A DNA stretch of 64,000 nt, from contig CAVVVC010000004.1 in NCBI GenBank assembly GCA_963751595.1, positions 73,262-137,261 on the forward strand, written 5' to 3'. Of the stretch, positions 30,604-62,261 are shown piece by piece; positions within the stretch are counted from its first letter, which is position 1; each line of letters opens with the position of its first letter. The DNA is from an uncultured Gammaproteobacteria bacterium. Lineage in GTDB: Bacteria; Pseudomonadota; Gammaproteobacteria; Pseudomonadales; JAHEGP01. Both the position numbers and the translations under genes were made by a program. Below the pieces are notes generated by a model. That model was not told the DNA's origin and ran no database searches. It saw only the letters and a list, made by a program, of their open reading frames with translations.

Positions 30604-30644
30604 TGGTCTCCCCGCTGGGCTTTAGCTCGCTGTCGCCGCAGGGT

Positions 30645-32015: not shown

Positions 32016-32020
32016 AAGAA

Positions 32021-45203: not shown

Positions 45204-45470
45204 GACCGAAAAAGCGGATACACGGTCCGCTGTGGCGATAGCCAACACAAGTTGTAAGGCGAGGAACACGGCGGTGAGGAAGCTGAATCAGGAACACACA
45301 GGGAGAACATGACGGCGGAGGTGTCACCAATCGAAGCTCGGGTATTGTTACCCGTGGCAAGCGCACCGTGAATAACAACTATCGTTTTCGCAAACGATAT
45401 AGAGACGACAAAGGTAACAGCACAAAACCCGGTCCAATTGAAATCTGACGTTAATGAGGTGGAAAATAAA

Positions 45471-46388: not shown

Positions 46389-46416
46389 CAAGGGCATAGA
46401 CCCGGAGGTAATACGA

Positions 46417-47661
46417 ATGAAACACCTGACATCAGTTTTTCTGGGAAAAAATCGTCTGCAGCTGGCAGCGGGGATCACATTTATGGTGCTGAGTTTTCCA
46501 GCTAGCGCCGTGCCTCTGTTGTTGGAGGGGCCGATCAGCGCCATATCGGCAAACCCCGATGGCTCTGGCAGCATTACCGTACTGGGGGTTGTCGTCGACA
46601 TTCCGGCGGGAACCAGCATTACTACGCCGACTGCGACCCTTAGCATGAACCAGGCAGTCAACACCACCCCGCTACCCGGGCGTACACAGCCTGGGTTTAT
46701 TGGTGGCACAGCCATTATTGCAGGCACCTCGGTGGCGAGCGTCAATACCGCAGATAGCCTGTTTATGGAACCCGCTGAAAATATCCTCGGGGCCGATGTG
46801 ACTTCGACTCCCCCCGATGCCATTGCAATCGCCGGCGTCCCGATGGTGCCCATCTCTGATGTTCGCCTGCTCGCCGGCCCAGTGACCAATGACTTTGGCT
46901 TCGAGGTCGATCCTGCCACAGTGCCCAGCGGCGTTGACGCGGTCGCTGAGGGGTACTTTTCCAACGATGGCTCCGGTGCGTTCCAGTACTTCGCTCTAAC
47001 AGCCTCGGGAGGCGATATCCTCAACCCAGGCGTTACCGAAGTAAGCGTTATCCGTGCCCAGTGCAGGGCAGGGGCCACGCCCGCCGATCCCATTGAACTG
47101 CGAGTGCTGGGCGGCGTGCATGACCCCGCCGGTGGCACGGTCACCATCAGGGACTGGGGACCAACCACATTCGGTACGGTGACGGCCGTCGCTGATGTGC
47201 CGCCCTTTGGAGTCTACGACTTTCGAGTGCGAACCGGCTTCACTGTGTGCCCGTCCAGTGTAACCGTGGAGTTCAGCGGTGCATCCACAGTGGCCGCGGT
47301 AGCGGGCGGTTCGCCCGATGTTGATGGCGATGGCGTGCGCGATGACGTGGACAATTGCGTCGATGTGGCCAATGGGCCGCTTATCCCCGATGCCGGTGGT
47401 TTTATCCAACGCGATACCGACGCGGATGGTTTTGGCAATATCTGCGATGCGGATCTCAGCCAGGACGGTACAACAGTAGTGAACCTCAGTGACTACGCCT
47501 TGTTCAGGAGCGCATTCGGCGATACCGCACCGGGCACGGAGCCTTATGGGCCAGTGGATCATGCAGATTTTACTGGAGACGGAGTGGTTAACCTCTCCGA
47601 TTTTTCAATATTCCGGGCGCAATTTGGCGGTGAGCCTGGTCCCTCGGGGTTGAATCCGTAA
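46417..47661 (+). CDS. secreted protein, unknown family A, with C-terminal TSP3/dockerin-like module
   Basis: 414 aa. Signal peptide ...MVLSFPASA. It is a paralog of 45471..46388. The last 119 aa (47302..47658) are the shared module: DVDGDGVRDDVDNC...DTDADGFGNICDADLSQDG..VNLSDYALFRSAFG...ADFTGDGVVNLSDFSIFRAQFGGEPGPSGLNP. Confidence 0.85.
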   Translation: MKHLTSVFLGKNRLQLAAGITFMVLSFPASAVPLLLEGPISAISANPDGSGSITVLGVVVDIPAGTSITTPTATLSMNQAVNTTPLPGRTQPGFIGGTAIIAGTSVASVNTADSLFMEPAENILGADVTSTPPDAIAIAGVPMVPISDVRLLAGPVTNDFGFEVDPATVPSGVDAVAEGYFSNDGSGAFQYFALTASGGDILNPGVTEVSVIRAQCRAGATPADPIELRVLGGVHDPAGGTVTIRDWGPTTFGTVTAVADVPPFGVYDFRVRTGFTVCPSSVTVEFSGASTVAAVAGGSPDVDGDGVRDDVDNCVDVANGPLIPDAGGFIQRDTDADGFGNICDADLSQDGTTVVNLSDYALFRSAFGDTAPGTEPYGPVDHADFTGDGVVNLSDFSIFRAQFGGEPGPSGLNP

Positions 47662-48544
47662 GGTCAGGCAAGGCGATGCTGTGCAGTCAGGTATCTCAAG
47701 ATGCACCGCACGAAGCAGCGGCGGAAGTGTCTTGAATCAGGGCCACGGTGAATACACCCTGTACCGCTTCAGCCCATGATGGGCTGGTAGCGAGATATCG
47801 TGGCACGGCGCCGGCAATCAGCCGTAGGAGAAAATCGATAAGAGCATTGAAAACAGAGGCAAACATAAAGGTGTGTCTGTATCGCCAATCCAGCGGGGGC
47901 TGCGTAGCCGCTAATTGTGACAGGTGGTCCCGCCTGACAATGCCTTCGCTGCTCTTGCCAGCTTTGGTTCCACAGGCTTTACAGGCGGGAGTCAGGGGAG
48001 AATAAATACGGGGCCTGGGTTTCTAACAGGTAAAAGCGCCACACTTTAATGAGCTCAAGGCGTTGGTGCATGCCACCAGGCATCATCCTGTAGTGTATTC
48101 CTGGTCCTCGAGCGCGATACCGACATAGCGCCCAGGCGCTGGAAATGGATAGCGACGATGTATTCGATTGCCTCCCGCAGCAGGGCTGAAAAGCCTTTGC
48201 ATTACAGATCCTGCCCCCGATGAGGATAGTCTGGGTGGTCCTTCGTTGCTGGACTTCATCCCGCAGCTAGTAGCTAGCCGGCCGCGTTCCAAGCCAAGCC
48301 TAAATTTGACGCGCTTTCACGGGTTTTGCTCGGGGCGGCCTGTGCCGTCGAGGAAGCGGCTGGCTTTCTGTTGGCCGGCTGGGAGGAATTAGGCTGACAG
48401 CGTTGAAGCGCAGGGGAGGCCAGGAATCAGCGGCGAAATGGGCTGGAATTAGCGAGAGAAACTCAGCGATGGCGCGCAGTACTATGCCAGCATGCTTTTA
48501 CAACGTTTACGGACGCATAAAGAATGCTAGGAGGCGCTTTAGTT

Positions 48545-48713
48545 GGAATGGCACTTACTTAAGGAGAAGGGCATAGGATTTTCGAAGCGCCGCTCCGAGT
48601 GTCTACCCCGTCAGAACACGCTGTAAACCCGCCCCTGGGGGCTCTGCGCCGACATCCCTGTCGGCGAAGGTCCTGCCGATAGACACCCGAATCGGCTTAA
48701 GTCAGTGCCATTC
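48545..48713. mobile_element. MITE-like palindromic element (169 bp) inserted in regulatory-module copy 2
   Basis: The terminal inverted repeats are ggaatggcacttacttaag (48545-48563) and cttaagtcagtgccattc (48696-48713), matching at 17 of 18 positions. The flanking 9-bp direct repeats are gctttagtt and gctttcgtt. The interior is an imperfect long palindrome (for example cgccgaca-tccc-tgtcggcg). The element is absent from the homologous site in copy 1 (tcgctttcagg, ~43484). Confidence 0.65.
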
Positions 48714-48728
48714 GCTTTCGTTGGTTAC

Positions 48729-48848
48729 TGTATAAAATCTCCACACCCCTATAAATACAAGGGCTTTAATGACTTAATAAATTACTTCAATAAATCATCG
48801 GGTTATGTCAATAACAGGTGCCAATCATAACTGTAAAAAGTTTCGACA
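48729..48848. promoter_or_regulatory. two copies of the TGT-N11-ACA motif, module copy 2
   Basis: TGTATAAAATCTCCACA (48729-48745) and TGTAAAAAGTTTCGACA (48832-48848), with the same spacing as in copy 1. Confidence 0.5.
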
Positions 48849-49244
48849 ACACTCACTTAATGTGCTGACAACCTACCCCGTCCAGTCCGTGACCATTCTA
48901 AATCTGTGCTTACCCAATCGATTCCGCGCAGCTGAAAAAGGTATCAGCGTCCAAAGAACCGCCGATGTGTTGCCAGCGGGCGGTGGTAAAACCGGTGTCA
49001 TTATTATTCACGGGGCGTGGCACAAGCAGCCTGACTGGCAGCGATATCATCCTTAAATTTCCGGCATTTTCGATCAGCAAAGCTGGAAATTACGATTCAC
49101 TACAATCTTGATGCCGAGGGTCTTATCCAAAAATAGCTATACAGAATCTATGGAATGTAACTCGCTATTTTATAGGTGCGAGTGGGGTGCTTGCCTCGGC
49201 AAACCTATCCAGCTTTCGAAGAACCACTGAGACATTTCGTTGAG

Positions 49245-49261
49245 TGTCGGTATTTTTTACA
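49245..49261. promoter_or_regulatory. inverted TGT-N11-ACA motif, module copy 2
   Basis: TGTCGGTATTTTTTACA, identical to 44674-44690. It lies 78-94 bp upstream of the sigma-54 element at 49339. Confidence 0.55.
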
Positions 49262-49338
49262 TATTACCGGGGGACAAGGTCGATGCGCTAGCAATGGCTT
49301 GCGCCAAGCTCTTGTTTTACTAACTTTTATGCCACCGA

Positions 49339-49354
49339 TGGCATGCCCCTTGCA
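49339..49354 (+). promoter_or_regulatory. sigma-54 promoter (-24/-12), operon B
   Basis: TGGCAT-GCCCC-TTGCA lies ~270 nt upstream of the ATG at 49625. Confidence 0.75.
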
Positions 49355-49624
49355 AGAGCACTAGCACCAGGCGTCTTGCTGCTCAATATATTAATCATAA
49401 AGTGAGCGACCCACGATGTACCGATACGTCGAAGATAGAAACCTAACCAGAAGGCACTGTTGCGCCTCGTCGCCGTGGCGCAATGCAAGCCGTGCCGCTT
49501 CGACGGCTCGTGTGTTTGAAGGCACCTCAAGTGCTGTGCTGCTTTTCAATGCGACTCCCCCAGCGAGGCCGCCAGTGCATTTGGCATAGTTAATCATCAT
49601 CCAAAAAAACATGAGGACTCAGGG

Positions 49625-52207
49625 ATGAAATTGAAAACCAGGCAGGGTCTACCCGGCCCAACGACGTTATTACACTGCAGCTATACGACTTTGTTGGTCA
49701 GTCTGCTTGGATACTCGCTTCCAAGCGTCGCCCAGGCACCACCGCCATTTCCGGCGCTTGCCACCATCGCCGTTCCCCAGCCCCTCGACCTCAACCAGTT
49801 TGTTAGCAATCAGTTCGCGGCGGAGGCACTGGGTAAGGCGCTGTTCTGGGATATGCAACTGGGAAGCGACGGGGTGCAGGCCTGTGCCAGTTGCCACTTT
49901 CATGCCGGGGCAGACAATCGCACGGTGAACCAGATCAACCCGGGAACCCTGGGCAATGACGACCAGTTTGGTAACAATCGGCTCGGGTTGTTGGAACCGG
50001 CCCCGGGTGCGGTGCGGCTGAACCAGGAACTCACCCCGGCGCATTTCCCTCTGCACAAACTGAGAAACCAGCATGCCGTCGGCGAGCCGGGGAACAATGA
50101 GAGCAATGTGGTGGTTGACAACAACGACGTAGTGTCTTCCCAGGGCGTTGTGCTCATGGACTTCGTCGATATTCAAATCGGTAATCCGGTTGATATCGGC
50201 GCTGCGGTGGTTGATCCGGTTTTCAATGTCAACGGCACTAACGTCCGCCGGGTCGAGCCTCGTAATACCCCGACGGTCATCAACGCGGTATTCAATTTCG
50301 AGAATTTCCACGACGGTCGCGCCAATAATATTTTCAATGGCAATAACCCGTTTGGACCCGCTGACCCCAGGCCCCACCTGCTGAATAATGAAACCGGTAC
50401 GCTGGTTCCGGAGGAGCTGCGGCTGCGCCACTCCTCGCTGGCTTCCCAGGCAGTGGGACCACCGCTGAGCGATTTCGAAATGTCGTGGCGCGGTCGGACC
50501 TGGCCCAAGGTGGGCAAGAAAATGCTCAGCCTGGAGCCGCTGGCCCAGCAGGCGGTGTCTCCGGATGATAGTCGCCTGGGCAACGTGGCCGACACTTCCG
50601 ATGGAGCAGGATTAATCCCCACAGTCTCCTATGCTTCCTTGATCCAGTCAGCCTTCCCGGCAAAATACTGGAATAATACCACCGAGAAGGTGGTCTACGA
50701 TGCCAGTGGCGATCCCAGCTTTTTGCCTGGTCCCGCGGATCCTCTAAATACTAACGAATACACCCAAATGGAGGCCAACTTCTCCTTCTTCTTCGGTATC
50801 GCCCTGCAAATGTACCAGGCCACGCTCGTTGCCAGCGCTTCCAAGGTGGACAAGTTCATCGACGGCAGTGGCGCACTCACCAACGAAGAACAGCTGGGTA
50901 TGGATGTGTTCGCCAACGACGGCAACTGTCTGGCCTGCCATGGCGGCGGCACCTTGATGGATGTTGATACCGCACTTATCCAGGGCGTCGACCCGACCGG
51001 TAACCCCGTCCTTTTCGATCAGAATCCCTTGTTCGCCAATGAGTTCATGCAGATCGCCACGGGTTTTGGCCTCTATGATAACGGCTTTCACAATACCGGG
51101 GTGCGCCCCACGGGTAACCCGGCAGCGCAGGCATTTGATTATCTGGCTGTCAATGAAGACGTGGGGCGGGGCGGTATGACAGGTCTCGGAGGAGGCCTCA
51201 CTGAGGTTTCCCTGTCGAAGGGTATTCTGGGCTTGCAGAATACCGGCGGCCCTACACTGCAAATGCCCGGGCTGGCGCCATTGCCCGGCTATATGGCCGA
51301 ATGGGTGCCGCCACTGCCACTGGGTTTCTTACCCAATGACACCAACCCAATACCGGGGAGGGTCACCAACTTCGGTGCCTTCAAAACGCCTGGCTTGCGC
51401 AATATCGCGCTGCAGGGTCCCTACATGCATAACGGTGGCCTGTCGACCCTGCGCCAGGTGGTCGACTTCTACGTGCGCGGTGGCGACTTCCCTTTGACCA
51501 ATGCCCATAACTTCGATTCCGAGGGCATGACGGTACTGCCCTTGTTGCGCGACACCGGCGCGGTGCCCGGGCAGCCGACACCGGAACAACTGCGAGACGC
51601 ACTGGTGCAGTTTATGGTGGCCTTGACCGACTCCCGGGTGGCCAACGAGGAGGCACCCTTCGATCATCCGGAGTTGTTCGTACCCATTACCGGCACTGCG
51701 CCAGTTACCCCCGGTACCCGCGCGCTGCTGCTGGCAGACACTACCAATTTCCGCCAGGTCCCGGCTGTAGGCAGTGACGGTCGCAATGCGCTGTTCCTGC
51801 CCCCGCTAGGTACCTTTCTGGGTCTGAACCCCCGTAGCGCCAGCATTGTTGCCGATGCTGACCTCGATTTGATTGCCGACAACCTCGACAACTGCGAGGA
51901 CGATGCCAACCCCTTGCAGGAAGATGGCGAAGGGGATGGCGCGGGTGATGCCTGCGATAACTGTGTTGCCGTGGCCAATGCCGATCAGCGCGATACCGAT
52001 GGCGATGGCTTCGGCAATATCTGCGATGCGGACCTGAACAACGACGGCAACACCAACCTGACCGACTTTGGCCTTTTTCGAACTTCTTTCGGTGCGAGCT
52101 CGCCGTTAAGTCCGGCAGAAGAAAATGCGGATTTGAACGGCGATGGCACGGTGAACCTGAGCGACTTTGGCTTATTTCGGAGTATGTTCGGCCAACCACC
52201 GGGGTAA
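49625..52207 (+). CDS. di-haem cytochrome c peroxidase / MauG-family protein with C-terminal TSP3/dockerin-like module
   Basis: 860 aa with a signal peptide. Two CxxCH sites (ACASCHFHAG and NCLACHGGG). Family blocks LGKALFWDMQLGSDG and FKTPGLRNIALQGPYMHNGGLSTLRQVVDFY. The last 118 aa (51851..52204) are the shared module. Confidence 0.85.
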   Translation: MKLKTRQGLPGPTTLLHCSYTTLLVSLLGYSLPSVAQAPPPFPALATIAVPQPLDLNQFVSNQFAAEALGKALFWDMQLGSDGVQACASCHFHAGADNRTVNQINPGTLGNDDQFGNNRLGLLEPAPGAVRLNQELTPAHFPLHKLRNQHAVGEPGNNESNVVVDNNDVVSSQGVVLMDFVDIQIGNPVDIGAAVVDPVFNVNGTNVRRVEPRNTPTVINAVFNFENFHDGRANNIFNGNNPFGPADPRPHLLNNETGTLVPEELRLRHSSLASQAVGPPLSDFEMSWRGRTWPKVGKKMLSLEPLAQQAVSPDDSRLGNVADTSDGAGLIPTVSYASLIQSAFPAKYWNNTTEKVVYDASGDPSFLPGPADPLNTNEYTQMEANFSFFFGIALQMYQATLVASASKVDKFIDGSGALTNEEQLGMDVFANDGNCLACHGGGTLMDVDTALIQGVDPTGNPVLFDQNPLFANEFMQIATGFGLYDNGFHNTGVRPTGNPAAQAFDYLAVNEDVGRGGMTGLGGGLTEVSLSKGILGLQNTGGPTLQMPGLAPLPGYMAEWVPPLPLGFLPNDTNPIPGRVTNFGAFKTPGLRNIALQGPYMHNGGLSTLRQVVDFYVRGGDFPLTNAHNFDSEGMTVLPLLRDTGAVPGQPTPEQLRDALVQFMVALTDSRVANEEAPFDHPELFVPITGTAPVTPGTRALLLADTTNFRQVPAVGSDGRNALFLPPLGTFLGLNPRSASIVADADLDLIADNLDNCEDDANPLQEDGEGDGAGDACDNCVAVANADQRDTDGDGFGNICDADLNNDGNTNLTDFGLFRTSFGASSPLSPAEENADLNGDGTVNLSDFGLFRSMFGQPPG

Positions 52208-52248: not shown

Positions 52249-53484
52249 ATGAAACTTTCTGAAAACGCTGCGTCTCATTGTCCCCGAGCGGGGGGCGCAG
52301 CAAAGGCGGTGTTACTGGCTGTTCTTCTCGCTGCAGGCCCCGCCCAGGCGGTGCTGGTGGATTTCGGCCCCATTGATCCTTCGCACGGTTACCCTCTGTG
52401 GTACCGCGGCGCAGATGGTCTTGGCCTTGAATTGTGCCTCAGCGAGGCCGCCGCCAATGCTGCTATTCCGGGTAACCTGCTTTGTCTGCTGGATCCAGGT
52501 GAAAGGCAGGAGCCAGGCAATCCGTTCATATCCTACCCGGATAATTTCTGGCCGGAGGTGTTCTGGACCCGGGTAGATGCAGAAACGCCCACAGCTTTGG
52601 GTAGTGCATTGTTGGTAACGGCCTTGGAGGGGGCATTTTTCAATGAGGAACCGGTCGCCGGCGAAAATATCAGCTTTGCCCGCATTCGCGTTCGTATCGA
52701 CAACCCGGTCGCGGGCGCAGACCTTAAGGTCACCCATCCTTATGGGGTATTGACCTTTGAGAATCAACCTGCGGGCCTGCGGGCCATCAATTTTACCAGC
52801 GATGTCGGAATACAGGCCACACCACCGCCGCCCAGCGACTATACCGGAGCACTGGGTGGCAGCATCGGACCTTTCCTGCGCTGGACCGCTCCGGACTTCC
52901 CGGTACTGGATCAGAATGGTGTCGCTTACATTGGCGATCCCAATATTCCCCATACCGTGACGGGCAGCCCGCTGGGCACCAACTTTTTCAGAGTTGAAGG
53001 GCCAGTGGGGTTAGGCAGCCCCGGCGCGCCCAACCTCTGTGCCGACCCGCTATTGGGTGACGATCCGACGGATTTCACCGATTGTATCGAGACCGACCTG
53101 TTTGTGGGTTCCGGGAAAATTGCTGATTCCGACGCCGATGGCAGCCAGGACCATGCCGACAATTGTCCCGCTGTAGCTAACCCGGGACAGCAAGATAACG
53201 ACCGCGACGGGCTGGGCAATGCCTGCGATAACTGCATTGATGTAGCCAACGCCGACCAGCGCAATACTGGCGCCAACCCGGCTTTTGGCAACATGTGTGA
53301 TGCCGATCTCGACAATAACGGTGTGGTAAATTTGGCCGATTATAGCCTGTTCAGGTCGGAGTTTGGGTCAGTAGAGCCTTTGAGCGCGGCGCAAGAGAAC
53401 GCAGACTTCGACGGTGACGGCAATGTCAATCTCGGCGACTTCAACCGCCTGAGGACAATGTTCGGAAAGGCCCCGGGGCCATGA
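52249..53484 (+). CDS. secreted protein, unknown family B, tagged
   Basis: 411 aa with a signal peptide ..LLAAGPAQA. Family-B blocks: GYPLWYRGADGLGLELC, FARIRVRIDNPVAGADLKVTHPYGVLTF, IGPFLRWT, HTVTGSPLGTNFFRVEGP, DLFVGSGKI. The last 120 aa (53122..53481) are the shared module. Confidence 0.85.
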   Translation: MKLSENAASHCPRAGGAAKAVLLAVLLAAGPAQAVLVDFGPIDPSHGYPLWYRGADGLGLELCLSEAAANAAIPGNLLCLLDPGERQEPGNPFISYPDNFWPEVFWTRVDAETPTALGSALLVTALEGAFFNEEPVAGENISFARIRVRIDNPVAGADLKVTHPYGVLTFENQPAGLRAINFTSDVGIQATPPPPSDYTGALGGSIGPFLRWTAPDFPVLDQNGVAYIGDPNIPHTVTGSPLGTNFFRVEGPVGLGSPGAPNLCADPLLGDDPTDFTDCIETDLFVGSGKIADSDADGSQDHADNCPAVANPGQQDNDRDGLGNACDNCIDVANADQRNTGANPAFGNMCDADLDNNGVVNLADYSLFRSEFGSVEPLSAAQENADFDGDGNVNLGDFNRLRTMFGKAPGP

Positions 53485-53566
53485 AGGACGCAGCACCGAT
53501 ACCAGCCAGACACATTGGGCCGTTTTGGTCTAGGAACAAAATATTTCAGGTTGCGGAGAATATAAG

Positions 53567-54865
53567 ATGAAAACGTTCAGACTATGGCTAGTGTCAAGTA
53601 CGCTGCTGATTGGCTTGGCACAGACCGGCTTGGCTGCCTGCCCCGCCGATGGCGCCAAGCCCATGAATATAGGGCCCCACTCCGCGCAGACCACGTTTCC
53701 GCTCTGGGTGCAGGACTCCGAGGGGTTGGCGCTGGAGATTTGCCCGGGAACTGATGCGGTTAACTGCATCTCGGTACCACCCTTCACCGCGGCCGATTTC
53801 CCCGGCGACCCGGATGCCGCCGCAAAAGCCGCGTTATCGCAACAGATAGGGTTTGGCGACGAGGGTTTCTGGGCCTCTGCGGAAACCAGCATTGCTTTAC
53901 CCGGCGGTGGGCAGGCTTTGCTGGTGTCCGCGGTTGAAGCCGCCTTCCTGCCGGATTTTGCCCCCGGAAACCAGGTTCCTTTCACCCGACTGCGTCTTCG
54001 CATCGACATCCCGCAGGACGGCACCTATATCGTCACCCATCCCTGGGGCCAGATCACTTACGACATCGTCGGCGCCGCCAATAGCGGGGATATCAACGAC
54101 TCCTTCGATATTCCCTTCGCGGCGGACCAGGTTGGCTACCAGGGTCGCATCGGCCCCGTCCTGACTTGGGACACTTTTCCCGACGATCCACTCCTCAGTG
54201 GTGGCGCTTACATCGGTACATTGGCCGTAGATCGCCCGGTGAAGGGTAGCCCCTGCGGCACCAATTATTTTCGTATCGAGGGCCCGAACATTGGTGGGAA
54301 CGGCATCGATTTTATCCAAACCGACCTGTTTACAGTCACCGGTAAAGTGTACACCGGCGCGTTACCGACACCGCTGGAGGTCAGTCAGGTGAGCTACAGC
54401 CGCGCTGCCAGTGGCAGGGTCAATGTGTTCGCCGAGGCGCCCACTCAGGCAACCGTGAGTTTTAGTGGTGGAGGTGATCTGCCCGCCGGTCAACTGCCCA
54501 TGACAGGAGACGGCAGCGGTCGCTTTTTTGGCAGTGTGGCGCTGGCACCGGGGGCGACACTACCGGCCGAGGTGACCGTCACGGCAAGCAATGCTGCGGT
54601 AGGCGCCCAACCGGCCGAGACCGTCAACCCCCTGGTTGACCTGGTTACCATTTCCCGGGCGGAATTTGATTACGCGACCGGTGATCTGACCATTGAGGCC
54701 CACTCCAGCGACGAGGTCGCGCCACCCGTGCTGTCCGCCCTGGGGCAAAACCTTAGCAACGGCGTGTTGAGCACCAATTTGATCGTTGCCCCGCCGACGG
54801 TGACCGTAAGTTCGTCTGCGGGCGGTTCCGCCACCATCCCAGTGACAGTGATTCACACCCCATAA
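53567..54865 (+). CDS. secreted protein, unknown family B, untagged
   Basis: 432 aa with a signal peptide ..IGLAQTGLAA. Blocks: FPLWVQDSEGLALEIC, FTRLRLRIDIPQDGTYIVTHPWGQITY, IGPVLTWDT, VKGSPCGTNYFRIEGP, DLFTVTGKVY. It ends VTVSSSAGGSATIPVTVIHTP, at the position where the next gene (..VTVSSSAGGLATSLVAVVNSADEDGDG..) continues into the module. Confidence 0.85.
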   Translation: MKTFRLWLVSSTLLIGLAQTGLAACPADGAKPMNIGPHSAQTTFPLWVQDSEGLALEICPGTDAVNCISVPPFTAADFPGDPDAAAKAALSQQIGFGDEGFWASAETSIALPGGGQALLVSAVEAAFLPDFAPGNQVPFTRLRLRIDIPQDGTYIVTHPWGQITYDIVGAANSGDINDSFDIPFAADQVGYQGRIGPVLTWDTFPDDPLLSGGAYIGTLAVDRPVKGSPCGTNYFRIEGPNIGGNGIDFIQTDLFTVTGKVYTGALPTPLEVSQVSYSRAASGRVNVFAEAPTQATVSFSGGGDLPAGQLPMTGDGSGRFFGSVALAPGATLPAEVTVTASNAAVGAQPAETVNPLVDLVTISRAEFDYATGDLTIEAHSSDEVAPPVLSALGQNLSNGVLSTNLIVAPPTVTVSSSAGGSATIPVTVIHTP

Positions 54866-54886
54866 GCGCAGCCGGAGACTGATAGA

Positions 54887-56614
54887 ATGAACAATAAAAT
54901 AGACAAAACCATGGTCCCGGTCTTGCTTGGTTTGCTCTTGAGCTCGACCACCAGCAATGCTGCGGATTTTTTTGCCGGCCCGCCGAACCCCAACAACGGT
55001 TTCTCGGAATACTTGACCGACGCCAATGGGCTTGAGTTAGAACTGTGCCTCGACCCCGCCTTCTGCCTTTTCGACCCTTTAGATCCGACCAACGATTTTT
55101 CAAATCAGATCGGCTTTGGTGCGGAAGGCTTCTGGTGGCTGGCCGAACCCGACACATCCGGCTTCCCGGGTACCATCGGGGCCACGCTGGTGCTTGCTGC
55201 CGAGGCCGCATTTGCCGCGGAAGTTCCCATTGATGGCGACCAGTTCCCCTTCACCCGGTTGCGCATTCGCCTGGATCTCCCGGTGCCAGGGATCTACCGC
55301 GTAACCGAGCCTTATGGGGTACACATTTACACCGTCACTGCCGTGGGTGCGGGCCTCGAGGTCAACGAAAGCTTCGACGTGCAGTTTAACCAGGGCACCA
55401 TCGATGACCAGGGCAATGTGACGGAAGCCGTCAACACCTATGGCGGCCCCTGGCTAACCTGGGATACCTACCCCAATGATGCTGCACTGGAAAACACCGG
55501 TGACGGGGTCGCGGATTTCATTGGTGACGGTGCCACCCCGCATGCGGTTATCGGTAGCCCCGCTGGCAACAACTTCTTCAAAATCGAGGCGTTTTCGGAC
55601 GCAGCCTTGACCGTCCCCTTGAACACCTTCGACCCAGGTGATGGCGATGACGATGGCAGTGCCAACAGTGTCACGGCCAGCCTGTTTACCGTGGTGGGTA
55701 AAGTCTACGACGGTCGACTCGCCACGGCAATGAGCGCCGAGCGCCTTACCTACTCGCGGGATGCCGGCGGTACCGGGCAGGTCGATGTATTCACCCGGGG
55801 CGCTGCGACCGCTAGCGTGACAGCTGCGGGCGGTCCCAATCTGGGCGGGCCTTTCAGCTTACTTGCGGATCAGGGCAACTTCTTTTTGAGCCAGCAGTTG
55901 ACGCCCAACGCGGTGGCATTGCCCTCTTCGGTAAACATTGAGGCAACCGATACGACCGCTGATCCGACCCGCTTGATTCAATCGCTGTCGGATTTCGTGA
56001 GCATTACGCGTGCGGAATATGACCTGGGAGCTTCGCCTCCGGCCCTGACCATCGAGGCTGCATCGAGCGATGCCCTGACTCCGCCGGTGCTCACGATCGT
56101 CGAGCTGGATCAGCCGCTGACTGCGGGCAGTGCAGTTATCACTGAAACGGCGGCGGGCGACCCGATCGCACCGCCTGCCTTGGTTACGGTGAGCTCCTCC
56201 GCCGGCGGACTTGCGACCAGCCTGGTGGCGGTGGTTAATTCAGCTGATGAGGACGGCGACGGCGTGTCTGATGACCTGGACAATTGCCCGCAGACTCCCA
56301 ACTCGGGGCAGGCGGATACCGACGCGGATAGTATTGGCAACGCCTGCGATAACTGCCTGCAAGTTGCCAACACCGACCAGCGTGATACCAATGATGATGG
56401 CTTCGGTAATGCCTGTGATGCAGACCTTGACAACAGCGGAGTCGTCAACTTGGCCGACTTTCAATTGTTTCGAGGCGTTTTTGGAGAGTCGCCATTGAGT
56501 CAACTTGGAGACGATGCCGATTTTGATGGCGACGGTAATGTTAATTTGGGAGATTACGGCAAGTTCAGAAGCGTGTTTGGGCAAAAACCCGGTCCATCAT
56601 GCTGTGCGCCTTAA
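54887..56614 (+). CDS. secreted protein, unknown family B, tagged
   Basis: 575 aa with a signal peptide ..LLSSTTSNAA. Blocks: FSEYLTDANGLELELC, FTRLRIRLDLPVPGIYRVTEPYGVHIY, GGPWLTWDT, HAVIGSPAGNNFFKIEAF, SLFTVVGKVY. The last 124 aa (56240..56611) are the shared module. Confidence 0.85.
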   Translation: MNNKIDKTMVPVLLGLLLSSTTSNAADFFAGPPNPNNGFSEYLTDANGLELELCLDPAFCLFDPLDPTNDFSNQIGFGAEGFWWLAEPDTSGFPGTIGATLVLAAEAAFAAEVPIDGDQFPFTRLRIRLDLPVPGIYRVTEPYGVHIYTVTAVGAGLEVNESFDVQFNQGTIDDQGNVTEAVNTYGGPWLTWDTYPNDAALENTGDGVADFIGDGATPHAVIGSPAGNNFFKIEAFSDAALTVPLNTFDPGDGDDDGSANSVTASLFTVVGKVYDGRLATAMSAERLTYSRDAGGTGQVDVFTRGAATASVTAAGGPNLGGPFSLLADQGNFFLSQQLTPNAVALPSSVNIEATDTTADPTRLIQSLSDFVSITRAEYDLGASPPALTIEAASSDALTPPVLTIVELDQPLTAGSAVITETAAGDPIAPPALVTVSSSAGGLATSLVAVVNSADEDGDGVSDDLDNCPQTPNSGQADTDADSIGNACDNCLQVANTDQRDTNDDGFGNACDADLDNSGVVNLADFQLFRGVFGESPLSQLGDDADFDGDGNVNLGDYGKFRSVFGQKPGPSCCAP

Positions 56615-56759: not shown

Positions 56760-59700
56760 ATGAAATCCAGAAAAACAAGATCGATAACTAAGTCGGTGCG
56801 AACCGCAAAAATGGCGGGCCTATTGGGCTTGGCTGGCCTTTCGCAGACGGCCACAGCCGCCGTCAACATACCCTCGGACATGCCCGCCAGTCCACTATTT
56901 GGCGCGCAGTCCTTTGCCCAGCAAATGCTGCGTTTCGAAGAGTTCGAGGTGCGCTTGATGCCGGCGCCCGGAGCCGACCAGACGAGAACATTCGATCCGC
57001 CCAATACCTGTGACGGCAGGCCGAACCCCTCCGCTATGGAGAGCCTGCTCGACGCGCCCCTGTGGCCAGATCCAACCATAGAGGCCAATACCAGTCTGCC
57101 CAACCCCTGGGCCGGGGCTATCGATAGCTGTATCCCGGGGGTCATTCCCAGCGGGGGCGCGATAGAGGGCAGGCCGCCGGGCGTGAGTTTCTCCCACCAG
57201 CGTTATGATGAGTTCCCCCCCGCGGTATACGCCCAGAGCATGATGGGCGCTGCCCGCGCCGGCACCGGTCGCCTGGATGATGCACAAAGCCACGGCTACG
57301 CAGTGGGTGAGTTCGCACCTGGCGGGCTATACCACAACACCACGGGCGCCTTCGGTGGTACCTCCAATGGCACTACCGCCGGCATTGAAATCAAATTTCA
57401 CCCCTCCATGCCGGCGCAGGATCCAAACCGGCTGTGGACCTTCGGCGATGGTACGCTGCCACCGAAACTACTGAGGGCCCGCTATGGCCAGCCGATTCTG
57501 TTTCGCCATTACAATGCCTTGCCCATCAACGTTGGCGCCAACGACGGCTTTGGCGAGCACACGATCACTACCCACCAGCACAATGGCCATAACCCCGGTG
57601 AGGTCGACGGCTTTGCCGGTGCCTACTTCTTCCCTGGACAGTTCTACGACTATCGCTGGCCCATGGTACTGGCGGGTTACGACAGCATCAACGCGGATGC
57701 GCGGGATCCCCGTGCCTCTACTCCGTGCTCAGCGGGCGAGGTGCTGATGATTGCCGACCCCAATACCGGCACAACCAAGCCCAAGACCTGCGACCCCGAA
57801 ACGCTAACGGTCAATATTCCGGGCGACTGGCGCGAGACCATGAGTACGCTCTGGTTCCATGACCACATGATCGACCGCACCTCGGAGAACGTCTACAAGG
57901 GCAACGCGGCGATGATGAACTACTACAGTGGCATCGATCGCGGCAAGGAAGGCTTTCGCTGCGATTATGCTGACACCCCCGAGCAGGATAATGTCAATCT
58001 GTGCTTCCCCAGCGGAACCGCCCTGGACTGGGGGAACCGCGATTACGATATCCAGTTGCTGATTGCCGCCAAGGCCTGGAATCAAAGTGGTCAGTTAGAC
58101 ATGGCGCTGGGCCTCAATGAAGATGGTTTCCTGGGAGACAGAATGACGGTTAACTGGCTGTACGAGCCGTATCTCGAGGTGCGTCCCCGCCGCTACCGCT
58201 TCCGGGTGCTCAACGGTGCCGTGGCGCGCTTCTTCAAGTTCGCTATTGTCGAGCAGGTGCAGGGTGGTGGTGGAACGTTCCAGGGCCCTCCGGGCTCTGG
58301 CGTGTCCTACAATCGGGTGCCGTACTTCATGGTTGCCAACGACGGCAACATCATGGAATATGCTGTTCCCTTTGGCCCGGGCAACCCCAATGGGGTCGAC
58401 CCGGATCTGCCGATTCAGTCAATTGCCGAAAGGTTCGATATTATCATTGACTTCGCCGGCAAGGCCGCGGGCACCAAGCTGTACATGGTAAACACCCTGG
58501 GGCATGACAATGGCCGTGGCCCCAAAGGTGTGGAGCCGCTCGCCAATATCCTCAATGGCACCTTCAGTCCAGAAATCCAACCCGGCTGCAATGACAACAA
58601 CTGCTGGTCAGACGACCCCACGCTGAGGCCCTTCCTGGAATTCCGGGTAGGCGCCTCTAACGGAGAGCCGGATTTGAGCATGGACCCCAACCTGTACGTC
58701 GCGACGGAGTTTGGTGGAGGGGGTAAAACCATGATTCCCCTGGTGCAATTTACCCAGGCGGAGCTCGATGGGGCCATCCATCGTACCTTCGACTTCACCC
58801 GGGGAGGTAATCCTGGAGAAGCAACCGATGGTCGCCAGACGCCTTGGGGTATCGTTACCGACGACGAGCCAGAAACTGGTGCTTGTTTAGATGATCCAAT
58901 CGCGAATCCGGGCACATGCTCCCGCACCGCCGACGTGAACCGGGTGTCGGCGGCCCCGGAAACCATCGGTGGCGGCGTCGAGATCTGGCACATCAGAAAT
59001 GGTGGCGGCGGCTGGGGCCACCCGGTGCATATCCACTTTGAAGAGGGCCAGTACCTGAACCGCGACGGAGCCATCCCGCCCCCCTGGGAGGTCGGCGCGC
59101 GCAAGGATATGTATCGCGTATCGGGTCTTGACGATCCCGGTAGCAGCTCGAATATCTCAGTTGCAATTCGCTTTCGCGAGTTTGCCGGTACCTACGTGGA
59201 GCACTGCCACAATACTACCCACGAAGACAAAGCCATGCTGCTGCGCTGGGATAACGAAATGCCGGGGCAAACGGTGCGCATACCGACACCGTTGCCGACC
59301 TGGGACGGCGTGGGCTATATCAGTGCCCTCAACCCACAGCCGTTTACCGACGCTACAGCAGTGGTGGAGTTACCAACCATCAAGACCGGTAACGTGGCAA
59401 TGGCGGCGGCTTCTGACCTGGACGGCGATGGCATTCTGGATAGCGTCGACAACTGTGTCATAGTCCCGAATCCGGGGCAGGAGGATGTGCTGGATATAGG
59501 TGGACCTGATGGCGTTGGCGATGCCTGCGATAATTGCCAACTGCTTGCCAACCCGGACCAGCTTGATACCAACGCCGACGGCTTTGGCAACGCCTGCGAT
59601 GCGGATCTCAACGGCGACGGCCAGGTGAACTTGGCTGACTTTGCTGAGTTCAGGGCGTCGTTCGGCACGAGCGGGAAAGATGCAGACCTCAATGGCGATG

Positions 59701-59780
59701 GCTTTGTGAATCTCAGTGACTTTTCATTGTTCAGAGCCAGGTTTGGAAGCGTTCCGGGACCGTCGGCAGGCAACCCGTAG
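56760..59780 (+). CDS. large multicopper oxidase with C-terminal TSP3/dockerin-like module
   Basis: 1006 aa with a Sec-type signal peptide. The four Cu-ligand motifs are HQHNGHN, LWFHDHM, HPVHIHFEEG and HCHNTTHEDKAMLL (CotA/bilirubin-oxidase-like HCHxxxHED..M). The last 123 aa (59409..59777) are the shared module. Confidence 0.9.
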   Translation: MKSRKTRSITKSVRTAKMAGLLGLAGLSQTATAAVNIPSDMPASPLFGAQSFAQQMLRFEEFEVRLMPAPGADQTRTFDPPNTCDGRPNPSAMESLLDAPLWPDPTIEANTSLPNPWAGAIDSCIPGVIPSGGAIEGRPPGVSFSHQRYDEFPPAVYAQSMMGAARAGTGRLDDAQSHGYAVGEFAPGGLYHNTTGAFGGTSNGTTAGIEIKFHPSMPAQDPNRLWTFGDGTLPPKLLRARYGQPILFRHYNALPINVGANDGFGEHTITTHQHNGHNPGEVDGFAGAYFFPGQFYDYRWPMVLAGYDSINADARDPRASTPCSAGEVLMIADPNTGTTKPKTCDPETLTVNIPGDWRETMSTLWFHDHMIDRTSENVYKGNAAMMNYYSGIDRGKEGFRCDYADTPEQDNVNLCFPSGTALDWGNRDYDIQLLIAAKAWNQSGQLDMALGLNEDGFLGDRMTVNWLYEPYLEVRPRRYRFRVLNGAVARFFKFAIVEQVQGGGGTFQGPPGSGVSYNRVPYFMVANDGNIMEYAVPFGPGNPNGVDPDLPIQSIAERFDIIIDFAGKAAGTKLYMVNTLGHDNGRGPKGVEPLANILNGTFSPEIQPGCNDNNCWSDDPTLRPFLEFRVGASNGEPDLSMDPNLYVATEFGGGGKTMIPLVQFTQAELDGAIHRTFDFTRGGNPGEATDGRQTPWGIVTDDEPETGACLDDPIANPGTCSRTADVNRVSAAPETIGGGVEIWHIRNGGGGWGHPVHIHFEEGQYLNRDGAIPPPWEVGARKDMYRVSGLDDPGSSSNISVAIRFREFAGTYVEHCHNTTHEDKAMLLRWDNEMPGQTVRIPTPLPTWDGVGYISALNPQPFTDATAVVELPTIKTGNVAMAAASDLDGDGILDSVDNCVIVPNPGQEDVLDIGGPDGVGDACDNCQLLANPDQLDTNADGFGNACDADLNGDGQVNLADFAEFRASFGTSGKDADLNGDGFVNLSDFSLFRARFGSVPGPSAGNP

Positions 59781-59907: not shown

Positions 59908-60999
59908 TTGTATATGCATTGTTCTCGAAATACCGCCGGATTACCTCGAGCTGCTGCTGTCATCCTCCTGTTGATCGCTGCGATGTATCTCGCAACGGTC
60001 AATTTGGCCTGGGCGAAACCGGAGTTCCCCAACGTGGTGCTGATCAACCAGGACGGAGAGCCCCTGCGCTTTTACGATGACGTCATCAAGGGAAAGGTGG
60101 TGTCGATCAACTTCATGTTTACCAGTTGTGGCGATGCTTGCCCCCTGGAGACAGCCAAGTTGCGCACGGTGCAAAAGATGCTGGGGGAGCACTCCGGCAA
60201 AGACGTGTACATGTACTCCATCACTGTGGATCCCGATCGCGATACACCCGAGGTGCTCAAGGCCTATATGCAGAAATTCGACGTTGCCCCTGGCTGGCAG
60301 TTTCTCACGGGAGACAAGGAAGACATCGACCGGGTTCGGGACGCACTGGGCATGTTGAGTGAAAACGAGCAGGAGCTTAGCGACCATGTCATCAATTTTG
60401 TGCTGGGTAATGAGGAGACGGGGCAATGGTTTCGACGCACACCCTTCGATATACCCGAGGCACTGGTTTCGGTGTTACTTGGTCGCCTCCAGCAGCACCG
60501 CCTGACGGCTTCTTCTGCCGCCGTGTTCCCGAGTTACGCCGAGAGCAAGCCTCTGCCGGCTGCCAGCCCGGGTGAGGACCTCTACAACACGCGCTGCACC
60601 GCTTGCCACAGCATCGGCGGAGGCGACAAATTGGGGCCCGATCTGTTGGGTGTTGTTGCCCGGCGTGATCACCAGTGGCTGGTTCGCTGGTTGCAGGAAC
60701 CCGATGTCATGCTGGAGGAAAAAGATACCCTGGCGATGGAGCTATTCGCCCAGTACGGCAATGTGCCAATGCCTAATGTGCAACTCACTGAGCAACAGGC
60801 GCTTGACCTGATCCAGTACATGCAGACCGAAACCGAGAGGGTGGCCGCAGCCAACCGTGCCCGGGTTCCGGCAGACAGCCTTGATGGCATTGTAACGTCG
60901 CCCCGGGAGCAACCCGGCGCTCCACCAAGCTCCACCGCCGACGACGTAGTGCCGGATCAGGCGCGCCTGGAAACTTCACCGGCGGGAGACGCTCAATAG
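59908..60999 (+). CDS. SCO1/SenC-type copper chaperone fused to a c-type cytochrome domain
   Basis: 363 aa (TTG at 59908 or ATG at 59914) with an N-terminal anchor or signal. The thioredoxin-like domain has the CxxxC motif FMFTSCGDACPLE and a downstream His (SDHVINF). The C-terminal domain has CTACHSIGGGDKLGPDL and a distal Met (NVPMPNV). Confidence 0.8.
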   Translation: MYMHCSRNTAGLPRAAAVILLLIAAMYLATVNLAWAKPEFPNVVLINQDGEPLRFYDDVIKGKVVSINFMFTSCGDACPLETAKLRTVQKMLGEHSGKDVYMYSITVDPDRDTPEVLKAYMQKFDVAPGWQFLTGDKEDIDRVRDALGMLSENEQELSDHVINFVLGNEETGQWFRRTPFDIPEALVSVLLGRLQQHRLTASSAAVFPSYAESKPLPAASPGEDLYNTRCTACHSIGGGDKLGPDLLGVVARRDHQWLVRWLQEPDVMLEEKDTLAMELFAQYGNVPMPNVQLTEQQALDLIQYMQTETERVAAANRARVPADSLDGIVTSPREQPGAPPSSTADDVVPDQARLETSPAGDAQ

Positions 61000-61020: not shown

Positions 61021-61797
61021 GTGCCAACGAATATCAAGAACAGGAAACTTGCTGCCGCGTTTTTTACCGTGTTGTGTCTTTTGCCCCGCACTTTGGCCCA
61101 GGCGGCCAATATCGACCAGCTTGACGATTTTGAGGACAATACCCTGCAGGGCTGGGCGATGGGAGTCCCTACAGTTACAGAGAACTTCATGAGCATCGTC
61201 GCCGATGGCGGGCCTGATGGCGTCGGCGATTCCTATCTTGCGGTACGGTCTGACAGCTCGATTATCCGAGGAGGTGGTCAGCGGTTGACATTTTTTAACC
61301 GACAGCAGTGGGCCGGAAATTACACCGCCGCGGGCATTACTGCGATCGCCATGGATCTGAAGAATTTCAGCACCGACCAGGTTCTTAATATGCGCCTCGC
61401 CGTCAATGGCGGCTTCGGCAGCGCCTCAACGGGTGGTGTAACCGGTGGCGTTTTTATCAGCAACTCCATCAGCAGATTGGAGGTTGGTAGCGGCTGGACC
61501 CGGGCGGTGTTTTCGTTATTGCCCGACGACCTGATAGCCATCAGCGGCGGCATTGGCGGCAACACCACCGGCAACGATGTGGCGGCAACCCTGGCAAACG
61601 TTCAGGAGCTGCGCCTGCTGAATAGCGAGACAGATAGCTGGAGCGGTCTTACCGTTACCGCCAGCGTTGGTGTCGACAACGTCCATGTAGTGCCATTGCC
61701 GCCGGCTTTTGCTATGTTCGGTTCGGCCTTGATGGCGCTCGTGGCGTTCCTGCTGGGGCGGAAAAACTGGTTTTTTGGAAGGAACAGCGGTGATTAG
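61021..61797 (+). CDS. PEP-CTERM sorting-domain protein
   Basis: 258 aa. The GTG start lies 21 nt after the SCO gene, behind the RBS ggaggg. Signal peptide ..LPRTLAQA. C-terminus VHVVPLPPAFAMFGSALMALVAFLLGRKN.... Confidence 0.75.
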   Translation: MPTNIKNRKLAAAFFTVLCLLPRTLAQAANIDQLDDFEDNTLQGWAMGVPTVTENFMSIVADGGPDGVGDSYLAVRSDSSIIRGGGQRLTFFNRQQWAGNYTAAGITAIAMDLKNFSTDQVLNMRLAVNGGFGSASTGGVTGGVFISNSISRLEVGSGWTRAVFSLLPDDLIAISGGIGGNTTGNDVAATLANVQELRLLNSETDSWSGLTVTASVGVDNVHVVPLPPAFAMFGSALMALVAFLLGRKNWFFGRNSGD

Positions 61798-61841: not shown

Positions 61842-62261
61842 ATGAAGTGTCGCTCCGTAGTATTGGTTTCTCTGTTAGCACTGTCACCCGTTGTCTTCGC
61901 GCACGAAAATGCCAGCGCATCGAAGGCGGCAGTCAGCGCACAGCCGATGCAGCCGGCGAGTGAATCCGGTGCTGAAAAAGCTGTCTCGAACATGCCCAAA
62001 CCCAGTGAAGCCGAGGCGATAGAGGCCGCGGTAGCCTACCTGACCCGAGACGGAAGGTTGACCGTGGAGGAGACCGAGTTCCTCGCATGGGGCACCTACA
62101 GTGAACAATACGTTTACTGGCCGATGAAACTACGCATGCGTTATAAACGCGAGGGTGGAGAAAAGCTGAGGACGAACGACTACGCACTAAAAGTTTTCAA
62201 GGCAGCCAATGGTGATTGGCAAGCCGCACAATATTATGCCTGGCGTGCAGACTTCAAATAG
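61842..62261 (+). CDS. small secreted hypothetical protein
   Basis: 139 aa with a signal peptide MKCRSVVLVSLLALSPVVFA. No family recognised. Confidence 0.6.
   Translation: MKCRSVVLVSLLALSPVVFAHENASASKAAVSAQPMQPASESGAEKAVSNMPKPSEAEAIEAAVAYLTRDGRLTVEETEFLAWGTYSEQYVYWPMKLRMRYKREGGEKLRTNDYALKVFKAANGDWQAAQYYAWRADFK

Follow-up and report, generated by a model that had tools for sequence, protein, structure and literature searches.

Three adjacent genes in a stretch of DNA from an uncultured gammaproteobacterium (GenBank assembly GCA_963751595.1, contig CAVVVC010000004.1, positions 73,262-137,261) raise the question of which of two neighbouring oxidative enzymes their products serve. The stretch is 64,000 nt in length and is referred to here as the window, in whose numbering coordinates are given. 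The three genes (paralogs or copies 1, 2 and 3; 52249-56614, + strand) encode related exported proteins of no named family. Ending 41 nt before paralog 1 is a gene for an 860-aa di-haem enzyme of the CCP/MauG superfamily (49625-52207, +), and 145 nt after paralog 3 is a gene for a 1006-aa multicopper oxidase (56760-59780, +; Pfam Cu-oxidase_2), followed after 127 nt by a gene for a Sco1/SenC-cytochrome c fusion (59908-60999, +; Pfam). All are part of a cluster of co-directional genes with short gaps. In a preliminary description of this DNA, it was proposed that the three proteins could be substrates or partners of the di-haem enzyme. The strongest regularity of the family, however, is its coupling to large exported multicopper oxidases and Sco1, and not to the di-haem enzyme. 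We therefore favour a role for the three proteins as exported, non-catalytic accessories of a multicopper-oxidase system that would operate at the cell surface and be of the manganese-oxidase type, an assignment that we consider to be evenly poised between right and wrong.

Three tandem paralogs with a shared head

Paralog 1 (52249-53484, +; 411 aa), paralog 2 (53567-54865, +; 432 aa) and paralog 3 (54887-56614, +; 575 aa) were found as open reading frames (ORFs) with exactly the boundaries first described for a tandem array, and the gaps between them, described as 21-82 nt, were measured as 82 and 21 nt, respectively. The three genes are true paralogs, with a similarity far beyond chance. In BLASTP comparisons, copy 1 is 37% identical to copy 2 over 271 aa (E-value: 5e-30), copy 2 is 36% identical to copy 3 over 440 aa (E-value: 2e-59), and copies 1 and 3 are similar both in an N-terminal head (E-value: 2e-24) and in a C-terminal tag (E-value: 2e-37). 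The heads shared by the three copies are 36-39% identical. A Shine-Dalgarno-like sequence accompanies each of the ORFs, and the N-termini of the three products resemble signal peptides, in agreement with the original view that the proteins are secreted. When the paralogs were compared with their orthologs in a related locus (L086), the ratios of nonsynonymous to synonymous substitution rates (dN/dS) were 0.18, 0.09 and 0.16 for paralogs 1, 2 and 3, respectively. As these are similar to the values for the neighbouring enzymes in the same comparison (0.07-0.13), the three genes are considered to be functional and under purifying selection.

Common to the three copies is a beta-rich head of approximately 230 residues. 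In paralog 2, the head (aa ~30-262, 53654-54352) follows a signal peptide (aa 1-24) and is succeeded by two immunoglobulin (Ig)-like domains (aa ~268-356, 54368-54634, and aa ~358-430, 54638-54856). Paralog 3 has the same plan (signal peptide, aa ~1-25; head, aa ~26-283, 54962-55735; two Ig-like domains, 55736-56236) with the addition of a tag (aa 451-575, 56237-56611; coordinates by tblastn) that consists of thrombospondin type 3 (TSP3) repeats and then a dockerin-like duplicated Ca-binding segment. In paralog 1, the Ig-like domains are missing and the head is joined straight to the tag (signal peptide, ~aa 1-34; head, ~aa 35-291, 52351-53121; tag, aa 292-411, 53122-53481). This copy belongs to a different, deeper subfamily (B), marked by the motifs SFARIRVR and RAIN.T.D.GI, in which Pseudomonas and Nitrospirota members are also grouped. 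The tag of copy 1 is matched by Pfam TSP_3 (33.6 bits, cutoff 25) and Dockerin_1 (27.9 bits, cutoff 22.9) with the head unmatched, that of copy 3 is matched by TSP_3 (34.0 bits) with Dockerin_1 under its cutoff (17.0 against 22.9 bits), and copy 2, which has no tag, has no Pfam or NCBIfam match. The tag had been described as a discrete module ending at a domain border, and this is borne out by the point at which copy 2 terminates (..VTVSSSAGGSATIPVTVIHTP, then stop) and copy 3 runs on (from ..VTVSSSAGGLATSLVAVVNSADEDGDG) into its 125-residue tag.

The tags are not confined to the paralogs. Five of approximately 120 residues, with 50-62% mutual identity, are found in the window on five different proteins, all of them encoded inside this 15-kb cluster: the di-haem enzyme (51851-52204), paralogs 1 and 3, the multicopper oxidase (59409-59777) and famA2 (47353-47658), which is the second member of another tandem pair discussed below. 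The motif blocks originally listed for the three paralogs are real and collinear, but three of them are looser than they were written. Block 1, near the N-terminus, has the form GFSEY..ANGL in copy 3, without the P, W and D/E; block 2 is longer by one residue in copy 1; and in block 4 copy 2 has R instead of H.

Outside the tag, the proteins match no Pfam or NCBIfam model and no PDB sequence at E ≤ 1, as expected from their description as unrecognised. NCBIfam models searched at E ≤ 0.01 include those for choice-of-anchor domains and MbnP, and a profile of the family gave 0 matches at E ≤ 1 to all PDB chains. An AlphaFold2 model of copy 2, based on a 49-sequence alignment, has a predicted local distance difference test score (pLDDT) of 91.8 and consists of a beta-rich head followed by two Ig-like sandwiches; the head modelled alone has a pLDDT of 96.3. 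When the full model was compared with the PDB using Foldseek, only generic Ig/FnIII chains were returned (template-modelling (TM) score < 0.25), and the head model had no significant neighbour (best E-value: 0.64, TM ≤ 0.2). The profile and Foldseek checks proposed in the preliminary description thus provide no characterised family for the head in Pfam, NCBIfam or the PDB. The head is apparently a new fold, confidently predicted, with no solved relative in the PDB as searched by Foldseek.

Distribution of the family and its link to multicopper oxidases

A word-indexed search identified 149 relatives of the paralogs, and an exhaustive HMMER scan identified 1,525 clusters (at 50% identity) with E ≤ 1e-3, 361 of which have E ≤ 1e-30. 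Family members that carry any name are all called "hypothetical protein", and neither a describing paper nor a family name was found in the sources consulted. The head and two Ig-like domains are paired with varied C-terminal modules, including cadherin-like (Big_9/Cadherin_4/5), TSP3/dockerin, PKD, FG-GAP and CarboxypepD_reg modules, and the head is also found in large adhesin-like proteins (1078-1689 aa) with Ig-like, HYR, lamin-tail, CHRD, cadherin-like and fn3 modules. Three of the alternative C-terminal modules (cadherin-like, TSP3 and dockerin) are shared between homologs of the paralogs and homologs of the window oxidase.

The arrangement of a short gene with a long gene directly behind it, as in paralogs 2 and 3, is repeated in 20 or more non-identical loci, which belong to Pseudomonas, Methylobacter and a number of lineages of metagenome-assembled genomes (MAGs). 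The first gene encodes a protein of 420-500 aa with a head, two Ig-like domains and no anchor, and the second, located 10-70 nt further on, encodes a protein of 550-990 aa with an anchor module. This anchor is of the TSP3/dockerin type in the clade of the window and cadherin-like in Pseudomonas, Methylobacter and locus L022. In a rough neighbour-joining (NJ) tree, the two members of a pair are frequently placed together according to lineage, although the copy-2 and copy-3 types of the window's clade are old separate lineages. Pairs have apparently been created repeatedly or homogenised, a history that points to selection for this gene order. The difference between copies 2 and 3 was initially interpreted as a modular gain or loss of the tag. 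As a local event this cannot be maintained, because the short untagged and long anchored pair recurs in so many loci with different anchors; the contrast is a stable design and not a recent gain or loss.

Ninety loci were gathered and relatives of all cluster genes were mapped in them by tblastn. Co-occurrence was counted in 30 non-redundant loci with flanks of at least 12 kb, an oxidase being scored when located within 10 kb. These loci reach approximately 30% identity and represent at least five taxonomic groups. A large multicopper oxidase (either MnxG-type or of the window's type) is present in 21/30 loci and Sco1 in 17/30. The di-haem gene is present in only 10/30, each of which also has the oxidase, while 11 have an oxidase without a di-haem gene and nine have neither.

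Family members are found in or beside mnxG operons in L021, L022, L004 (Nitrospirota), L017 (Desulfopila), L032, L035, L031, L047 and L060. The large oxidase of these loci matches NCBIfam NF041487 ("manganese-oxidizing multicopper oxidase MnxG"), with MnxG fragments in L004, L021 and L022 scoring 700-1200 bits each. The accompanying genes encode beta-propeller, SurA-like, double Sco1 and cytochrome c binding proteins, a set that corresponds to the published layout of the P. putida GB-1 mnxG operon (PMC11409713; PMC8218464). The position of the family member inside the operon varies by lineage: L021 and L022 share the order MnxG, two family members, beta-propeller, SurA and Sco1, and in L032 the family member has Sco1 on one side and the cytochrome c binding protein on the other. 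In L004, the immediate neighbour of the family member matches choice_anch_L (188.9 bits). Triplets of oxidase, Sco1 and family member occur in six further metagenomic loci, and Methylobacter and Methylomicrobium have two or three family members together with an oxidase and Sco1 but no di-haem gene.

The Pseudomonas loci place the pair beside secretion-like genes. In S. stutzeri (L090), genes for a full-length MnxG (3679 bits, NF041487 cutoff 3100) and a beta-propeller protein are divergent from gspG, gspF, a short family member and a long (cadherin) family member. In Pseudomonas sp. MOB-449 and TCU-HL1 (L087 10001-21362; L089 10001-21362), a sigma-54 two-component system flanks the pair upstream. 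The pair is followed by CsgB-like and long CsgA-like curlin-repeat genes, which face csgG-csgF-csgE, two pseudopilin genes and a secretin gene; curli-type and type II-type secretion parts are mixed in this one locus. MOB strains have been described as manganese oxidisers (PMC13631088), and the Xcm pathway, present in P. putida GB-1 and KT2440, has a role in manganese-oxidase secretion (PMC4509608; PMC3056050). In P. taiwanensis (L001) and several metagenomic loci, no oxidase was found within 10 kb. De Vrind and colleagues reportedly found in 2003 that an xcmT1-xcmS pair and an xcmX/T2/T3-csg-like cluster are needed to secrete the manganese-oxidising factor. The settings in S. stutzeri and in MOB-449 and TCU-HL1 presumably resemble xcmT1-xcmS and the xcmX/T2/T3-csg-like cluster.

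The di-haem gene accompanies the family in one gammaproteobacterial clade only, namely that of the window, which includes gammaproteobacterial MAGs, Thiohalobacter and a Methylococcales MAG. The gene order in this clade is di-haem enzyme, short paralog, long tagged paralog, oxidase, Sco1/cytochrome c, PEP-CTERM-like protein and p139 (a 139-aa protein). The di-haem gene is invariably followed at once by a gene of the family, mostly of the copy-2 type and, in the window, L086 and L088, of the copy-1 type. L086 has the exact arrangement of the window, including copy 1 after the di-haem gene. The closest relative, L006 (82-87% nucleotide identity), is without copy 1, and its famA pair separates copy 3 from the oxidase gene. 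In L088, the di-haem gene is followed by a copy-1-type gene, two further genes and the oxidase gene. The products of these two genes (645 and 771 aa; L088 11403-15703) replace the copy-2/copy-3 pair, with no Pfam match and no similarity to window genes.

The window oxidase has all four copper motifs (HQHNG at aa 272, HDH at aa 367, HPVHIH at aa 754 and HCHNTTHEDKAM at aa 815), and its PDB relatives are bilirubin oxidase, CotA and CueO. It has more than 4,700 homologs, some of which are fused to cadherin-like, TSP3 or dockerin modules and one of which carries the JGI label "manganese oxidase". The protein is not MnxG, as it has no match to NF041487, and the presence of an MnxG gene elsewhere in the window was rejected because none was found by tblastn across it. 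The adjacent fusion gene, which adjoins the oxidase gene in relatives as well, matches Pfam SCO1-SenC (88.5 bits) and Cytochrom_C (37.3 bits) and has the motifs CGDAC (aa 74) in its Sco1 domain and CTACH (aa 230) in its cytochrome c domain. In one metagenomic homolog of the oxidase (P0325), oxidase, Sco1 and cytochrome c form a single 1310-aa chain; this fusion supports a direct functional link between the window oxidase and the Sco1-cytochrome c gene downstream.

Possible functions of the paralogs

As accessories of an exported oxidase, the paralogs could act in the following way. Each protein would be exported by the Sec pathway and would then cross the outer membrane, probably by a type II-like pathway. 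The Ca-binding TSP3/dockerin-like tag would hold the long members (copy 3 and, as a shorter form, copy 1) at the cell surface or in the matrix, and the oxidase, di-haem enzyme and famA2 would be co-located with them by means of the same tag. Copy 2, which is untagged, would be retained through pairing with its anchored neighbour. The heads, using their invariant polar residues, would bind either the oxidase itself or the insoluble material that it produces and would thereby organise extracellular oxidation, although the specific ligand is a guess. Co-anchoring is favoured by the occurrence of the same C-terminal modules on the paralogs, the oxidase family and the di-haem enzyme, and by the concentration of five tags in one cluster. 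The polar set (copy 2 numbering) is made up of E99, E124, R141, R143 and D181, with R145 and N233 nearly invariant; Q136 was nearly invariant in earlier alignments. Of the four cysteines in copy 2, C59 and C67 are invariant across the family, and C25 and C230 co-occur (both present in 31 members, neither in 27 and only one in six). Co-occurring pairs of this kind fit disulphides in an exported protein exposed to an oxidising extracytoplasmic setting.

Several points weigh against this assignment. The window oxidase is not MnxG, and the nine long-flank loci without an oxidase have the head in large adhesin-like proteins (with cadherin, HYR, CHRD or fn3 modules). The loci were sampled using subfamily A sequence patterns and hand-picked matches, such that the count of 21/30 is biased to subfamily A and to relatives of the window. 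No such gene is among those described for the P. putida GB-1 mnxG operon (PMC11409713; PMC8218464). The predicted fold of the head, having no solved relative, gives no hint of a ligand. Finally, the proposed short-long pairing of proteins rests on gene order, and, to judge from the NJ tree, several lineages acquired or homogenised their gene pairs independently.

The alternative that prompted this analysis centres on the upstream enzyme, for which the original label "MauG-like" is a fair one. The protein matches Pfam CCP_MauG (PF03150; 69.8 bits, cutoff 25.6) and has two CxxCH haem motifs (CASCH at aa 87 and CLACH at aa 435). Among PDB entries it is closest to MbnH (6e1c), with classical peroxidases, BthA and MauG ranking next. 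Tyr616 (in VVDFYVRGG), which is invariant in 15 orthologs, aligns with a Tyr of MbnH (6e1c) and of BthA (6nx0; Met in 6v59), whereas the classical Nitrosomonas peroxidase (1iqc) has Met at this position; judging from these alignments, Tyr616 is a candidate axial (distal) ligand of the second haem. The enzyme nonetheless represents a distinct, tagged and much longer branch (860 residues) with large insertions, and its NCBIfam scores are far below the equivalog cutoffs for both MbnH (95.6 against 362.85) and MauG (72.2 against 443.85). In such enzymes the two haems normally have a Trp between them, the presumed electron relay. Here it is replaced by His229 (50309-50311; FHDGRA in place of FWDGRA), and orthologs have W, H or L, a variability that is unusual for a presumed relay residue, while Tyr616 does not vary.

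MbnH oxidises its partner MbnP, and the same type of reaction has been proposed for MopE in methanotrophs. In partners of this type, a conserved Trp that becomes kynurenine makes up the copper site together with His ligands. By analogy, the paralogs would be substrates or partners of the di-haem enzyme, with an oxidised residue, most plausibly the Trp of the GP.L.W(D/T) block (W212 in paralog 1, 52882-52884; W201 in paralog 2, 54167-54169; W192 in paralog 3, 55460-55462; all +), making a cofactor or metal site. Consistent with this are a Tyr ligand position that is typical of the protein-oxidising MauG/MbnH/BthA branch, the family member found directly after the di-haem gene in every locus of the clade, and a Sco1 copper chaperone gene in the cluster, such as is found near many MbnPH loci. 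The W201 equivalent is the only aromatic residue that is invariant in all di-haem-linked members (23/23, versus 10/16 unlinked members). However, it is kept in most members that have no di-haem neighbour, and the contrast is phylogenetically confounded and largely phylogenetic in origin. A conserved Trp/Tyr/His/Met cluster had been suggested as a sign of a cofactor or metal site; apart from this one Trp in the linked members, the family alignment has no conserved His, Met or Tyr cluster, with copy 2 having R at the H223 position and copy 3 having E at the H158 position. The paralogs also lack any match to the NCBIfam MbnP model, to a PDB sequence or to a PDB fold, the enzyme itself falls far short of the MbnH and MauG equivalog cutoffs, and in the locus counts the di-haem gene never occurs without the oxidase while the oxidase often occurs without it. 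What stands of the original proposal is the strict adjacency and the invariant Trp within the clade, and we consider it unlikely that the proteins are substrates or partners of this enzyme.

It is also conceivable, though doubtful, that the paralogs are general adhesin or matrix proteins and that their link to oxidases reflects co-location in surface-protein islands without functional dependence. The large multi-domain proteins in which the head occurs and the nine long-flank loci without an oxidase would fit such a role, as would the biofilm-matrix setting in MOB-449 and TCU-HL1, where the pair is beside CsgB/CsgA-like genes and the csgGFE-pseudopilin-secretin genes. Chance, however, hardly explains an oxidase rate of 70% within 10 kb across at least five taxonomic groups with varied gene order. 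Some members are located between core mnxG-operon genes (L032, L021), and in each lineage the paralogs and the neighbouring oxidase have a C-terminal module in common. Very unlikely, in our estimation, is a head that acts as a metal-handling or enzymatic module, whether as an extracellular Cu/Mn carrier that loads or feeds the oxidase or as an unrecognised hydrolase. The positive support for this comes from context, namely the linkage with Sco1 chaperones and copper enzymes; the invariant acidic and amide residues E99, E124, D181 and N233 could bind a cation, and a head without a fold relative is one for which structure rules out no function. Against it, there is no conserved His, Cys or Met of the copper-binding kind (the invariant Cys pair looks like a disulphide), no catalytic motif and no family match, and the Arg-x-Arg-x-Arg strand and paired Glu may be merely structural.

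The accessory role that we favour can be extended into a more specific proposal, which we regard as conceivable but doubtful. The short and long pair would be an unrecognised non-catalytic part of the Gram-negative machinery for oxidising manganese (or a related metal), exported by an Xcm-type route, docking an MnxG- or McoA-like oxidase at the cell surface and possibly seeding the oxide. On this view the oxidase would depend on the pair for its assembly or activity, in the way that Bacillus MnxG depends on MnxE/F, and in the clade of the window the di-haem enzyme might also mature these proteins at the invariant Trp.

Neighbouring genes and known systems

Downstream of the Sco1-cytochrome c gene, the cluster continues after 21 nt with an ORF for a 258-aa protein with a PEP-CTERM-like C-terminus (61021-61797, +) and, 44 nt further on, an ORF for the 139-aa exported protein p139 (61842-62261, +). 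Neither protein has a Pfam or NCBIfam family match, and both genes are syntenic in L002, L006, L007, L009, L011 and L086. Upstream of the di-haem gene is the second tandem pair, famA1 (316 aa, untagged) and famA2 (414 aa, tagged), at 45438-47661 (+). These proteins constitute another unrecognised secreted family; they are 54% identical to each other, and their sole Pfam match is the tag of famA2. The position of the famA pair between paralog 3 and the oxidase in L006 indicates that it is part of the same cluster, and its short untagged and anchored members echo the design of the paralogs. A distant relationship between famA and the paralog head was rejected (hhalign probability 5.9%). The 1.96 kb between famA2 and the di-haem gene (47662-49624) contain no ORF of more than 85 aa and no Rfam match, and coincide with the breakpoint at which the window is rearranged in comparison with L006. 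No RNA element was identified when the whole window was scanned with Rfam, and promoter and terminator scans of the cluster gave background levels only.

Elsewhere in the window is a PEP-CTERM/XrtA regulatory set (27964-34063, -) consisting of a PrsT-like TPR protein (299.8 bits, just below cutoff), PrsK (626.8 bits) and PrsR (680.4 bits), as well as a VPLPA-CTERM protein (42609-43259, -); the oxidase cluster itself ends with the PEP-CTERM-like protein mentioned above. The first 27 kb may represent an exopolysaccharide locus. An IS1380-family transposase (406.9 bits; 3538-4962, -) and a second, near-identical copy that is split into two ORFs (8016-9448, -) are inserted among the polysaccharide genes.

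Among known systems, the paralogs can be compared with the accessory genes of the Pseudomonas-type mnxG operon. In both cases the products are exported alongside a large multicopper oxidase that is itself exported, and the family is co-operonic with the same genes in L004, L021, L022, L032, L047 and L017 and located beside mnxG in L090. Unlike that operon, the window has a shorter and different oxidase with a Sco1-cytochrome c fusion, in addition to the di-haem enzyme and the dockerin-like tags. The MnxE and MnxF proteins of the Bacillus Mnx complex provide a possible analogy, which is functional only, for an obligatory accessory pair, being non-catalytic proteins encoded beside a manganese-oxidising multicopper oxidase; they are small (~12 kDa) and unrelated to the paralogs. 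The MbnP/MbnH and MopE(CorA)/MCA2590(CorB) pairs also consist of an exported beta-rich protein encoded right after a Tyr-type di-haem enzyme, with a copper chaperone gene near; the exported protein binds copper at the surface or in the periplasm, and the MauG-like neighbour acts as its maturase. The invariant Trp of the di-haem-linked paralog members may be a further likeness. In contrast to MbnP and MopE, the paralogs have no conserved His pair and no sequence or fold similarity to these proteins, and most of the family is without a di-haem partner.

As in cellulosome-like and non-cellulosomal dockerin sets, several proteins of the cluster share one type of C-terminus, a duplicated, Ca-binding dockerin-like segment, which suggests that they are assembled on, or anchored to, a common partner. 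They differ from those sets in that TSP3 repeats precede the tag and the cargo is made up of oxidases rather than glycoside hydrolases. No cohesin-like scaffold was identified, no search aimed at one having been made. The combination of one N-terminal domain with C-terminal anchors that vary by lineage is reminiscent of the NCBIfam "choice-of-anchor" families, a member of which (choice-of-anchor L) is the neighbour in L004, although no such model matches the paralog head.

Manganese-oxidase operons and MauG-like maturases are already known. What appears to be new here is a cluster in which an oxidase is accompanied by an undescribed accessory pair, by a di-haem enzyme with a putative Tyr ligand and by dockerin-like tags that several of the proteins have in common. 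When bacteria oxidise manganese with enzymes of the MnxG and McoA types, they shape the cycling of both metals and carbon. To our knowledge, the Gram-negative manganese oxidases are poorly defined biochemically, and their known operon partners are all maturation factors. A large unnamed exported family inside the mnxG operons of several phyla is a testable candidate for a missing component, and in Pseudomonas it is found beside genes that resemble dedicated secretion genes. The presence of one dockerin-like tag on several oxidative enzymes hints at an assembled extracellular oxidase complex. With a function that is suggested by its genomic context, the family may provide a specific and widely conserved candidate for research on manganese oxidation.

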